Shown here piece after piece: positions 57-39,908 of a stretch of DNA of 64,000 bases. Both the position numbers and the translations under genes were made by a program. This DNA is from Eledone cirrhosa (Eukaryota), in NCBI GenBank assembly GCA_964016885.1, contig OZ024740.1:185256001-185320000 (forward strand), in the 5' to 3' direction. The notes beneath the pieces were generated by a model that ran no database searches, was not told the DNA's origin, and saw only the letters and a list, made by a program, of their open reading frames with translations. Position 1 is the stretch's first letter, and the number at the start of each line of letters is the position of its first letter.

Positions 57-1138
57 ACATACACACACACACTTAAATACATACACACACACACACACAC
101 ACAGACAAACATACATACACACATGCACACATACATACATACATATATGCATATATATAAACATGCATATATATATATGCATATATATATATATATATAT
201 ATATATGCATATATATAATTATGCATATATATATATATGCATATATATATATATATGCATATATATATATATGCATATATATATATATATATATATATAT
301 ATAGATGCTTATATATATATATGCATATATATATATAGATATATATATATATATATATATATATATATATATATGCATATCTGTATATATATATATATAT
401 ATATATATATGCATATCTATATATATATATATATATATATGCATATATATATATATATATATATATATATATATATATAAGCATATATATATATATATGC
501 ATATATATATATATATATATATATATATATAAATGTGCATATATATATATGTATGCATATATATGTATATATATATGCATATATATATATATATATATAT
601 ATGCATATATGCATATATATATATATATATGCATATATATATATATATGCATATATATATATATATGCATATATATATATATATATATATATGCATATAT
701 ATATATATATATATATGCATATATATATATATATATATATATATATATGCATATATATATATAGATACATATATATGCATATATATATATGCATATATAT
801 ATATATATACATATATATGCATATATATATATATGCATATATATATACATATATATGCATATATATATATATGCATATATATATATATATATATATATAT
901 ACATATATATGCATATATATATATATATACATATATATGCATATATATATATATACATATATATGCATATATATATATATGCATATATATATATATATGC
1001 ATATATATATATATATATGCATATATATATATATATATATATGCATATATATGCATATATATATATATATACATATATATGCATATATATATATATATAT
1101 GCATATATATATATATGCATATATATATATATATATAT
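57..1138. repeat. (CA)n then (TA)n microsatellite array with recurrent GC interruptions (tatGCata)
   Basis: Read directly from the sequence; source of the spurious YIYI ORFs. Confidence 0.97.
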
Positions 1139-1284
1139 TTCAGTATACATATGTGGATGTACATTTTTAACTTAATTGTTTAAGCGCCAGTCATACAAAA
1201 GTGAGTTACAAACGAAACGAAATTTAATTTCGTTTCGTTATTTGTTTTTATCGTCTCCGCTGAACCGGTACGTACTCACGCTCT

Positions 1285-1292
1285 ATGCAAAT
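1285..1292 (+). promoter_or_regulatory. Octamer motif ATGCAAAT (candidate snRNA-type distal element) inside retrozyme R1
   Basis: Exact octamer. The same motif with homologous context is present in the diverged R2 copies (34225-34232, 37433-37440, 37857-37864, minus). Function is inferred. Confidence 0.5.
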
Positions 1293-1377
1293 TAGTCTGC
1301 CCACTACTAATTTTCATAGAAAAAGCATATAACGATATGTGCTTTTACGATTCTCTAGAAAGGCCGGAAGATAGGTA

Positions 1378-1422
1378 AATATTGCTGATGAGATGTAACA
1401 ACATCGAAACTAGTCCAATATT
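1378..1422 (+). ncRNA. Minimal type I hammerhead ribozyme (R1)
   Basis: AAUAUUG-CUGAUGA-GAUGU(AACA)ACAUC-GAAA-CUAG-UC-CAAUAUU: perfect core, 7-bp stem I, 5-bp stem II, palindromic CUAG stem III, GUC site. Confidence 0.93.
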
Positions 1423-1825
1423 CCTTGTCTGGCTTTCTGGAGAATAGAGGAAAGGTGTTTCCTCAAAAACCAGTATGACTCTAAAAACCGGTTTGTCTGT
1501 GTGTTTACATACAGAATAGCTGGACACTCACAGTAAAGTGACCAGTGAAAAACTCGGTACATCTACATATGTACACGTATGTGTATTCATATGCATACTA
1601 GTATTTCAGTATACATATGTGGATGTACATTTTTAACTTAATTGTTTAAGCGTCAGTCATACAAAAGTGAGTTACAAACGAAACGAAATTTAATTTCGTT
1701 TCGTTATTTGTTTTTATATATATATATATATACATATATATGCATATATATATGCATACATATATATGCATATATATATATGCATATATATATATATATA
1801 TACATATGCATATATATATATATAT

Positions 1826-37200: not shown

Positions 37201-37323
37201 TATGTACGTATGGATTCACCGTACATTTATTATAATGCTCGGTGTGTTTGTAAACACACATCCCGTATTAAGCCGTAGTGTCTAGCAACCATCGTTGCTC
37301 GTTTGTTCAACACTGACAAAGGA

Positions 37324-37366
37324 ACGCTGTACTAGTTTCAAGCTTATTAGCTATCGTTAGCAACGT
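37324..37366 (-). ncRNA. R2 hammerhead, core mutated (CUAACGA)
   Basis: Same fold as 37748-37790 with G5 changed to A. Confidence 0.7.
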
Positions 37367-37747
37367 ATACCTTCCTGCCAGATTGTTGAACGTACATACT
37401 AACATTATGCATATTAACGGCTGAGTAGCCCAATTTGCATATCGAGTGGGTTAATCGCCCGGGTGCACCGAAAACGATAAATGGAAAAAAATGAAACGAA
37501 ATTTCATTTCCCACTCTTAGTACGGCTGTTACTTAAATATAAGTATGTACACTACATACATATATGTATATAGACGTACAGTAGTATGTCTATTTATATA
37601 CATACATGCGCATATATATATATATATGTACGTATGGATTCACCGTACATTTATTATAATGCTCGGTGTGTTTGTAAACAAACATCCCGTATTAAGCCGT
37701 AGTGTCTAGCAACCATCGTTGCTCGTTTGTTCAACACTGACAAAGGA

Positions 37748-37790
37748 ACGCTGTACTAGTTTCAAGCTTATTAGCTATCGTCAGCAACGT
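37748..37790 (-). ncRNA. R2 hammerhead, intact core
   Basis: ACGUUG-CUGACGA-U-AGCU(AAUA)AGCU-U-GAAA-CUAG-UA-CAGCGU. Confidence 0.88.
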
Positions 37791-39908
37791 ATACCTTCCT
37801 GCCAGATTTTTGAACGTATATACTTACGTTATGCATATTAACGGCTGAGTAGCCCAATTTGCATATCGAGTGACTTAAACGGCGGGGTGCACCGAAAACG
37901 ATAAACGGAAAAAAACACACCGAGCATTATAATAAAAGTACGGTGAATCCATACGTACATATATATATATATATATATATATATATATATATATATATAT
38001 ATGTGTGTGTGTGTGCATGTATGTATATATATACATACTACTGTACGTCTGTATACATATATGTATGTACGTGTACATACTTATATTTAAGTAACAGCCG
38101 TACTAAGAGTGGGAAATGAAATTTCGTTTCATTTTTTCCGTTTATATATATATAGTAATAATAAATGTGAAGACTAAAATCCGAAGAGGGCTCGATAAGG
38201 GTGAAAGCAGCGATTATTTGTATAAACTTTAATCTGTTCTTATAATATATATAAGCTTAATTTCTTATTAGCCGACTAAGATACAATTTTGTTATAAACT
38301 TGGCACACACCTCTTCATATCTATATACCACTAATAGATTTCAGTTCCTTGCAAAATATATTTAATCAAATGTTATTCATCCATAATATATATTTGGTGC
38401 TTGCCTGTTTTCTTTTTTCAAACAACTTTTATTATTTATAATTAACATCATATGTTCAAATTGAATAGCTTTCTACATGCATACACACACAGGCCGGCAC
38501 ATTGATGAGACATGCATTTCAAACATTTATTTAATTAAAGAAGAGAAAATATTTACAAATCATTAGTACATTTCTCCCGCTATGCCATCTATATTCAGAA
38601 AATTAGCATGTGGGTATACATAGGTGCTTTTCCAGGGGAGCTGATTCAGCTGTCTAGATCTTGGCTCATCTACTAAATGTTTTCCACACCACTATTTACA
38701 CTATTATTATCAAACTTTATCCTCTATCTAGAAATATTTAAGATTTATTTATTTAAGGTTTATTTATGATATTCTAGAAGAATCTAGAAAAACGAAAGAA
38801 AATATAATGATTTGGCAGATAAGATGAAATTTATTTCATCTACGTTTAGCTTTGCTATTCATTGTAGATTTGACAATATAGCAATGGTATTGTATTATCT
38901 TCATTGCAGGATTGGCTTAGACATTCGATATGCCTCGTAATATACACATATATGAATAAACGTTATTCTGTTGACAGAAGTAAATTCATTAAAATTAATT
39001 TATATCGTACTTTTAAAGGTTGAATGTAAATGAAATATTTAAAGAAATCCTTTATCAAAATATTGAAAATGTGATGTTTTGGTGTTCGTTCTGGTAATTG
39101 TCATACTTGTAACTTATTTCGATTAAATAGTATGTGCGCGAACTACTCTCGAAAAACGTTTTTAAAGCCTTATTTTCAAAAGGAAAGCCGGTGCAAAAAC
39201 AATGAAAAATGTTTATTTATAACGCTTTTGAGGTTTATAGGACTGAAATAATGTTTTTTTTTTTTTTTTTTTTTTTTTTGAATGCTTTACGGTGAAATAA
39301 AGAAGTACTACAAATTCAGGTTATGACTACAACTATTTATATATAGATCTAAGTATTATCTTTATGGGATATTGCAGAGCAATAAGGCCAAATAATGGCT
39401 TTAAACTGACCAGCATTCGATTAACTGGCATCTGCCACTTGACCTATTTGTTTGCGGGAAGTTTGATGTGATTGGCGTTGATAGTAAAATATCACCTTCT
39501 CATCTCTACCAAAGAAATCGAAAGATGTCGGATGACATAAATGCATCGAAGTGTGTTTAATGGGATTTTTGTGCCAACGTTTAAGAGTGGAAGCAATTAT
39601 AACAGTTTAAAAGGGGAAACAAAAACATACGCTAACATTATTCGTGATAGAGAAATTGTAAATTATCGGCGAGAGATGGATTCCTGATAAAGAAAATTGT
39701 CTCCTAAATTTAAGATAGACGAGCTGTTTCCAGGTATAACACAGGCATATGAAATATATCAGAGAAAGAATTAGATAATTAGAATGACAATCAGACTGAT
39801 AAAGAGACACGCCGATCCATAAATAGATAAAGGTATGAATAGTTTGTTGGTTAGAAACGTGGGAAGTGAACATAATGCTTTGATAGGCTCTGATTTAACT
39901 AATTTTAA

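Follow-up and report, generated by a model that had tools for sequence, protein, structure and literature searches.

R1 and R2 are two related families of hammerhead-bearing repeats in the genome of Eledone cirrhosa. Here we report an analysis of their copies in a 64,000-nt stretch of contig OZ024740.1 (GenBank assembly GCA_964016885.1, positions 185,256,001 to 185,320,000 of the forward strand), hereafter the window, and of their relatives across the 3.0-Gb genome. By their genomic features the repeats appear to be non-LTR (long terminal repeat) retrozymes, that is, tandem, non-coding units with a type I hammerhead, dispersed by retrotransposition. Very probably they form a young, abundant family mobilised by Penelope-like elements (PLEs). 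Notable are the PLE marks of their insertions, the genomic trace of a template consisting of one monomer, and an element captured from a host promoter, whose function is uncertain.

Features of the locus

The R1 insertion (1136-1717, plus strand) consists of 1.25 units of a 466-bp repeat inserted in (TA)n, and it stops at the distal of two fixed 3' sites. Its only hammerhead (1378-1422) is of type I with a palindromic 2-bp stem III and a predicted cut after 1415. Upstream of it lies the 12-mer TATGCAAATTAG (1284-1295, with an octamer at 1285), which one of the host's U6 genes has, letter for letter, as its proximal element and which doubles as the 5' arm of a hairpin. A TATA-like sequence (1328-1333) follows 44 nt past the 12-mer, compared with 47-49 nt in the host. 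The PLE-type tail runs from the proximal 3' end (unit position 392/397) to the distal one (unit position 466) at 1643-1717 and includes a hairpin (1674-1711). In the circular fold, a helix across the unit junction (1201-1279) pairs 1201-1206 with 1274-1279, with a compensatory pair in R2, and encloses the terminal hairpin, a T5 run and the distal 3' site.

Two R2 insertions, built from units of about 424 bp, are present. R2a is a single unit (33832-34240, minus strand) with a 12-mer at 34222-34233, a hammerhead at 34109-34151 and a terminal hairpin at 33843-33860, and it is joined at its 5' end to an inverted stub of 44 bp (34238-34281, plus strand). R2b has a two-unit arm (37115-37915, minus strand) that stops at the proximal 3' site and an inverted arm (37913-38145, plus strand) that stops at the distal one; its 12-mers lie at 37854-37865 and 37430-37441. 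Of the two R2b hammerheads, that at 37748-37790 is intact and that at 37324-37366 has a mutated core (CTAACGA, at 37360). The octamers of R2 are at 34232, 37440 and 37864 on the minus strand, and two chance octamers occur elsewhere in the window (49 and 27330).

The positions and the shared, colinear non-coding blocks that had been claimed for R1 and R2 from a first reading of the window (the original prediction) were borne out when the coordinates were re-read. The units of both families can be aligned over their full length with 59-63% identity, and the longest stop-free stretches of 60 and 90 amino acids mark them as non-coding. A further fragment at 21981-22200, also assigned to R2, is indeed an R2 3' end with an inversion, but it carries neither hammerhead nor 12-mer nor octamer. 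The 5' inversions attributed to the window copies are found in R2 but not in R1, and the description of the copies as 1.25-mers or dimers holds within the window but not genome-wide, where arrays reach at least 31 units and one satellite exceeds 45 kb.

Family size and hammerhead fold

A hammerhead-motif pattern gave 40,520 matches across the genome, against 6 for the control, and the first 30 matches on contig 1 all belonged to R1 or R2 subfamilies. The best-scored matches were 99-100% identical in R1 (n = 40) and 96-100% identical in R2 (n = 40), and the exact distal junction of R1 occurred 2,058 times genome-wide (0 for controls). Array length starts from a partial unit. One R1 subfamily (89%) forms the satellite mentioned above, a 6-unit higher-order repeat of 2,817 bp at 95.64-95.69 Mb of contig 1; this period, with its R1-like hammerhead, had been considered as an autonomous partner and was rejected once recognised as the higher-order repeat. 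In one stretch an R2 array lies beside an R1 insertion (L036:1398-3240). R1 (window 1100-1760) was also present in sequencing runs filed under three organism codes, in contigs of unknown kind, and one of these contigs closes on itself with a period of 466 nt, a behaviour expected of tandem arrays and circles alike.

The covariation reported earlier for the hammerhead stems was confirmed, with the same stem pairs, on aligned copies. Among ten copies, one of which comes from a third family, R3, 92.9% of cells were paired and 11 of 17 pairs changed on both sides; this pairing was reached by 0 of 500 shuffles, and slid controls stayed at or below 50.6%. Since the copies are related, the count overstates the number of independent events. 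As judged from the alignment, the covarying stems show the ribozyme fold to be under selection. Rfam matched R1 to Hammerhead_HH9 with 38.9 bits (E 1.4e-8), which falls short of the gathering score of 52, and returned no match for the R2 stretch 37640-37915, while the output of a whole-window scan was dominated by microRNA models matching (TA)n.

Stem III comprises two pairs around the palindrome, and hammerheads with such a short palindromic stem III are reported to cut as dimers (PMC4209133). Two points weigh against self-cutting. Most R2 hammerheads have U.U in place of the canonical G10.1-C11.1 (the bases do not pair in 6 of the 10 aligned rows, of which one is R3), a departure from a pair described as highly conserved (PMC4209133), and of nine predicted dimers of frog retrozymes only one cut in vitro, according to the account in bioRxiv 2026.07.22.740005.

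Insertion signature

The original prediction that PLE machinery had carried R1 and R2 into (TA)n was supported by the (TA)n targets, the inverted arms and the two fixed 3' ends. Insertion structure was analysed in 90 of the first 100 R1 insertions listed, which were selected by the distal junction alone. An inverted arm was present in 61 of the 90, running beyond the stretch examined in 9; among the remaining 52, whose far end is visible, 47 stop at unit position 391-398. (TA)n opens the far flank in 63 of 71 insertions. The 3' ends of R2 fall at unit positions 382 and 439 (14 and 19 distinct flanks, respectively) and are homologous to those of R1. The two fixed 3' ends are spaced by 57-74 nt in R1 and R2, and the 5' ends are variable and do not cluster at the ribozyme cut. 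A one-sided tail is a PLE signature (Craig et al. 2021), and with a purified PLE the tail was found to equal the distance between two internal starts of the reverse transcriptase (RT) (PMC11167929). Fixed 3' ends together with inverted arms require retrotransposition. No LTR, primer-binding site or polypurine tract was seen in R1 or R2 on inspection, no dedicated scan having been made.

The mobilising enzyme

The clade of the mobilising PLE had been given as Naiad-like. The neighbouring PLE open reading frames (ORFs) do not agree with this: ORF A (15429-17648, minus strand, 739 amino acids) and ORF B (48469-50967, minus strand, 832 amino acids) have the RT-side motif DKT, a linker of the form CxCx5C and, at the C-terminal end, a nuclease motif; together with (TA)n targets, these are features of the Hydra clade as identified by motif inspection. 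Naiads are described as having an N-terminal nuclease and a DKA motif and no hammerheads (Craig et al. 2021), whereas hammerhead-like cores lie upstream of ORF A. The Hydra assignment rests on motifs because searches of Pfam and PDB with the two proteins returned no match, and ORF A points to a candidate clade for the mobilising enzyme. Three Hydra-type families, at 15429-17925 (minus) and 48469-51400 (minus) of the window and in one stretch elsewhere (L100:2075-2600), also stop at two 3' sites in (TA)n, with a spacing of 83-86 or 166 nt. A conserved CTC...GAG hairpin motif comes after each end and may serve the RT as a recognition signal.

Whether the partner of R1 and R2 belongs to the Hydra clade is, from these comparisons, an evenly balanced question. 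It counts against such a partner that R1 and R2 have no long similarity to the three Hydra families sampled and are without the hairpin motif that follows the ends of these families. A Naiad or another PLE clade is a serious, if somewhat less probable, candidate, since Naiads also target (TA)n and are present in Octopus species (Craig et al. 2021) and the ends of R1 and R2 lack the motif common to the three Hydra families. On the other side, the PLE pieces near these loci resemble Hydra-type proteins (the queries were themselves Hydra-type, by which Naiads are not detectable), and the R1 tail and Hydra family C agree in 11 of 12 letters directly past the start of reverse transcription, a likeness noticed post hoc and reached in 11 of 1000 shuffles.

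The 12-mer and host small nuclear RNA promoters

The octamer had been likened to that of the small nuclear RNA (snRNA)-type promoter of newt satellite 2. Comparison with the host's own promoters shows that it is not a vertebrate-style distal Oct site here: the host has another motif as its distal element, and it is the proximal element of its RNA polymerase III (Pol III) promoters that the octamer matches. The 12-mer containing the octamer lies at -77 to -79, with a TATA box at -30, in the promoters of three distinct U6 genes, the best U6atac gene and MRP; the distal element occupies -259 to -290 in 13 of the 16 promoters examined. For the 12-mer, no score above 8.1 was obtained among nine host promoters of U1, U2 and RNase P genes. 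No octamer was found within 1.5 kb of the 12 U2 loci examined; one occurs near 7 of 14 U1 loci, at -399 to -1319. The U1 and U2 promoters have TCAGT near -57 in place of the 12-mer and share the distal element. The RNase P RNA gene is without the 12-mer and has a U1/U2-like TCAGT with two distal elements, hinting at transcription by RNA polymerase II (Pol II). The U6 promoter motif of the host is useful for guide-RNA expression, and a literature search on molluscan U6 promoters returned nothing relevant.

In R1 and R2 the 12-mer lies on the sense strand, 81-101 nt ahead of the hammerhead core, and matches one U6 element in 12 of 12 letters. It scores 18.7 bits in R1 and R2a, like host sites (0/500 shuffles), and 14.7 bits in R2b (3/500). 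Of the 181 distinct units, 162 contain it, and among six subfamily representatives only the ribozyme core is a longer invariant run. That it acts as a promoter is plausible on this evidence, the balance tipping slightly against.

Several observations weigh on the negative side. The TATA-like sequence lies 42-44 nt past the 12-mer in R1 and R2, compared with 47-49 nt in all five host promoters, and is thus 3-7 nt too close; in human U6 a deletion of only 2 nt in that spacing is tolerated, as reported in bioRxiv 2024.09.10.612236. Runs of T5 (twice in R1) and T6-7 (R2) should end Pol III transcription before the next hammerhead. The host distal element is absent from R1 and R2 (score at most 4.2 bits) in a search that likewise failed to find it in the host U6atac and MRP promoters and in one U2 promoter, and the block after the R1/R2 hammerhead, considered as a host distal element, was rejected by the score test. 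Nor was the host Pol II (U1/U2) proximal layout found (-10.8 to -19.4, within shuffles), under a weak model that gives one held-out host promoter a score of -3.9. One chance match to the 12-mer occurs in the rest of the window. The five host promoters were selected for carrying the motif, the rest being presumed pseudogenes: with 500 nt upstream covered, the 12-mer is at the host position in 7 of 27 U6 matches and 1 of 8 U6atac matches, and several motif-less matches adjoin microsatellite or repeat ends. In insects the sequence of the proximal element itself determines the polymerase (PMC1761439). A choice of that type would favour Pol III with leaky termination, and Pol II is also possible.

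Moreover, in both R1 and R2 a stable hairpin (z -5.8) has the 12-mer as its 5' arm. It could therefore have been kept as an RNA structure or protein-binding arm in a PLE-mobilised retrozyme transcribed by Pol II read-through or from another promoter, an alternative that is possible but falls well short of probable. It draws further on the strong folding of the unit as a whole (z -6.97 for 1416-1717 in R1), the displaced TATA-like sequence and the T-runs. A structural role alone would not account for the full match to the host U6 element in the right orientation ahead of the hammerhead, nor for the unequal constraint on the hairpin, in which the first 10 letters of the 5' arm are constant and the 3' arm varies by lineage with different mismatches. 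R3 also holds the host distal element (20.9 bits, 0/500), which argues against structure as the sole explanation.

Should the 12-mer be a functioning promoter element, its retention would be unusual. When U6-type genes are retroposed, the copies are normally left without the upstream promoter, and promoterless U6 and U6atac copies are present in this genome. A retroelement that carries a U6-type element within itself would escape that loss.

The RNA template

In 52 of the 90 R1 insertions the sense arm is longer than a single unit. The 5' breaks are evenly spread over the unit, with 2 of 84 at the first cut site and 1 of 84 between the cut and the predicted start, which excludes a linear monomer as the main template. 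Linear templates running from cut to cut or from start to terminator were accordingly rejected, as the piles of 5' ends that they predict are absent. Among 16 arrays with at least five pieces, 9 have a private variant in every covering unit, present in at most one other of 88 loci; one duplicate locus, and one taken as the far end of another array, were omitted from this analysis. Array haplotypes are common to both arms. The array-wide private variants and the haplotypes in both arms point to one monomer that was read over and over, as on a circular template. The period-2 and period-4 spacing of matches had hinted at circles of several units, a reading that was rejected: one pair of variants reappears a single time, 4 units away, and all others are singletons.

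The junction-spanning helix is paired in 112 of 116 R2 units (79 G-C, 28 A-U and 5 G-U, with 4 mismatches), the change from G-C to A-U being one lineage event. Its covariation in R2 implies that the selected RNA extends past the T-run into the next promoter region. From this genomic pattern a circular RNA monomer is the probable template, in line with the original prediction. Seven of the 16 long arrays, as a counterweight, are without a private fixed variant. The median distance within an array is 0.0070, compared with 0.0085 to the nearest other locus, and is the lower of the two in 40 of 71 cases and the higher in 30. A homogeneous source array would give the same variant picture one step removed, and uncut RNA was preferred by a PLE in the experiments described in PMC11167929.

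These points leave an opening for a template in the form of a long uncut multimer from big arrays, with rare hammerhead cutting and no circle required, which we regard as unlikely. Such a template would be in keeping with the 31-unit arrays and the satellite of more than 45 kb, with the even 5' breaks, equally compatible with a long linear RNA, and with in vitro insertion by a PLE that did not need cleavage (PMC11167929). It is harder to reconcile with the single-monomer bottleneck in 9 of the 16 arrays, although units differ by up to about 1%, and with the stem covariation, a mark of selection on the ribozyme. Very improbable, and largely refuted already, is that R1 and R2 are solo terminal repeats of a coding PLE, in line with the resemblance of frog retrozymes to PLE terminal repeats (bioRxiv 2026.07.22.740005), or a satellite spread by DNA recombination alone, in line with the 6-unit satellite: R1 is not the end of a longer element, because 71 insertions have no common sequence at the far junction; the stop-free stretches are short, and the insertion signature requires retrotransposition.

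Proposed mechanism

Together, the observations lead us to lean, with some reserve, towards R1 and R2 being non-LTR retrozymes that are driven by a U6-type element, cut themselves and are copied as circles into (TA)n by a PLE RT. In the first step SNAPc would bind the 12-mer of the upstream unit, and the RNA would start just ahead of the hammerhead and read through the T-run. Two tandem hammerhead copies would then cut as a dimer, as known short-stem-III hammerheads do, and the resulting cut-to-cut monomer, with the promoter now inside it, would be ligated into a circle. A PLE enzyme would prime internally at both 3' sites and copy the circle repeatedly into (TA)n. With more than half of the insertions longer than one unit, a promoter would be regained ahead of a hammerhead. 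The more specific version, in which a captured U6-type promoter is retained by circular permutation and the circle is copied continuously by a Hydra PLE enzyme from internal priming sites, is put forward tentatively.

Two questions on animal retrozymes thereby become testable, namely which enzyme mobilises them and what drives their transcription. Thousands of young insertions with the PLE-specific double 3' end give exact priming sites for reconstitution, and in the private variants fixed throughout an array the genome preserves a trace of a monomeric template.

Comparison with known systems

Among hammerhead repeats with a promoter, that of newt satellite 2 uses a distal octamer, and that of Schistosoma Sm-alpha is tRNA-like and internal, unlike the upstream, U6-type element of R1 and R2. 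Newt satellite 2 is likewise a tandem hammerhead repeat with an internal snRNA-type promoter (PMC2220036, PMC6765202); its promoter is reported there as Pol II, whereas the R1/R2 motif is the host Pol III proximal element, with no distal element. In Sm-alpha, as proposed for R1 and R2, the hammerhead of one unit is transcribed from a Pol III promoter in the unit before it, and single copies are described as losing the ability to spread (PMC6765202).

The non-LTR retrozymes of coral, mussel and axolotl (Cervera and de la Pena 2020, PMC7229834) are likewise tandem low-GC repeats, of 150-450 bp, so that the units of R1 and R2 (424-466 bp) are slightly longer. Both sets have one type I hammerhead per unit and range from dimers to large multimers, and the short stem III is as in amphibian retrozymes. 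Double fixed 3' ends, inverted arms, (TA)n targeting and an internal promoter do not figure in the available text of that study. Circular RNA has been demonstrated for its retrozymes; for R1 and R2 it is predicted. PLEs have been proposed before as the mobilisers of retrozymes, from co-occurrence or repeat homology (PMC7229834, bioRxiv 2026.07.22.740005). The vertebrate retrozymes of Li, Clavereau and Pollet (bioRxiv 2026.07.22.740005) are likewise described as non-autonomous PLE derivatives, on the grounds of co-occurrence and terminal-repeat homology; the available part of that report gives no insertion signatures and no mollusc among its samples. Unlike them, R1 and R2 have an insertion signature and no homologous PLE repeat was found, three families having been compared.

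The Hydra-clade PLEs (Craig et al. 2021) and the Poseidon element PAc (Frangieh et al. 2024) have (TA)n targets, inverted 5' copies and hammerheads, as do R1 and R2, and according to these accounts their tail is likewise set by two internal RT starts; they encode an RT and a nuclease, whereas R1 and R2 do not. PLE tails are quoted there as 30-40 bp, compared with the spacing given above for R1 and R2 and the 83-166 nt of the Hydra-type families in this genome.

Literature searches on retrozymes or hammerheads in octopus returned only the Naiad/Hydra paper as relevant, within a scope that included few subscription papers and lay outside Dfam and Repbase. Searches on hammerhead repeats with Pol III or upstream promoters returned no report of a U6-type element in a retrozyme, though supplements may hold related elements.

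R3 and other observations

R3, a very young family, has a 310-bp unit and inverted arms (contig 1, 117.911-117.915 Mb), gave 340 matches and forms arrays that are 100% identical on several contigs. It has (TA)n targets in common with R1 and R2, and one copy lies about 0.5 kb from an R1 array. Its host distal element is placed right after the cut site, overlapping stem I, and no Pol III 12-mer was found in its units. A Pol II proximal layout picked by eye was rejected (matrix score -14.0, 53/300). With a host distal element in R3, the capture of snRNA promoter parts may recur as a route to self-transcribing retrozymes.

More hammerhead-like cores occur in the window at 7694(+), 13454(-), 13696(-), 17875(-), 18027(+), 18568(-), 21071(-), 21791(+), 22452(+) and 57257(-), and several of them, in short repeats flanked by (TA)n, are probably fragments of PLE terminal repeats. 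The terminal repeat of the PLE with ORF B (47030-47060 and 51210-51260, minus strand) has a hammerhead-like fold with an altered core, CUGAAAA...GAAG, recognised by eye. At 1827-3831 (plus strand) a 5'-truncated, frameshifted RT fragment of LINE type, unrelated to R1, is also inserted in (TA)n.

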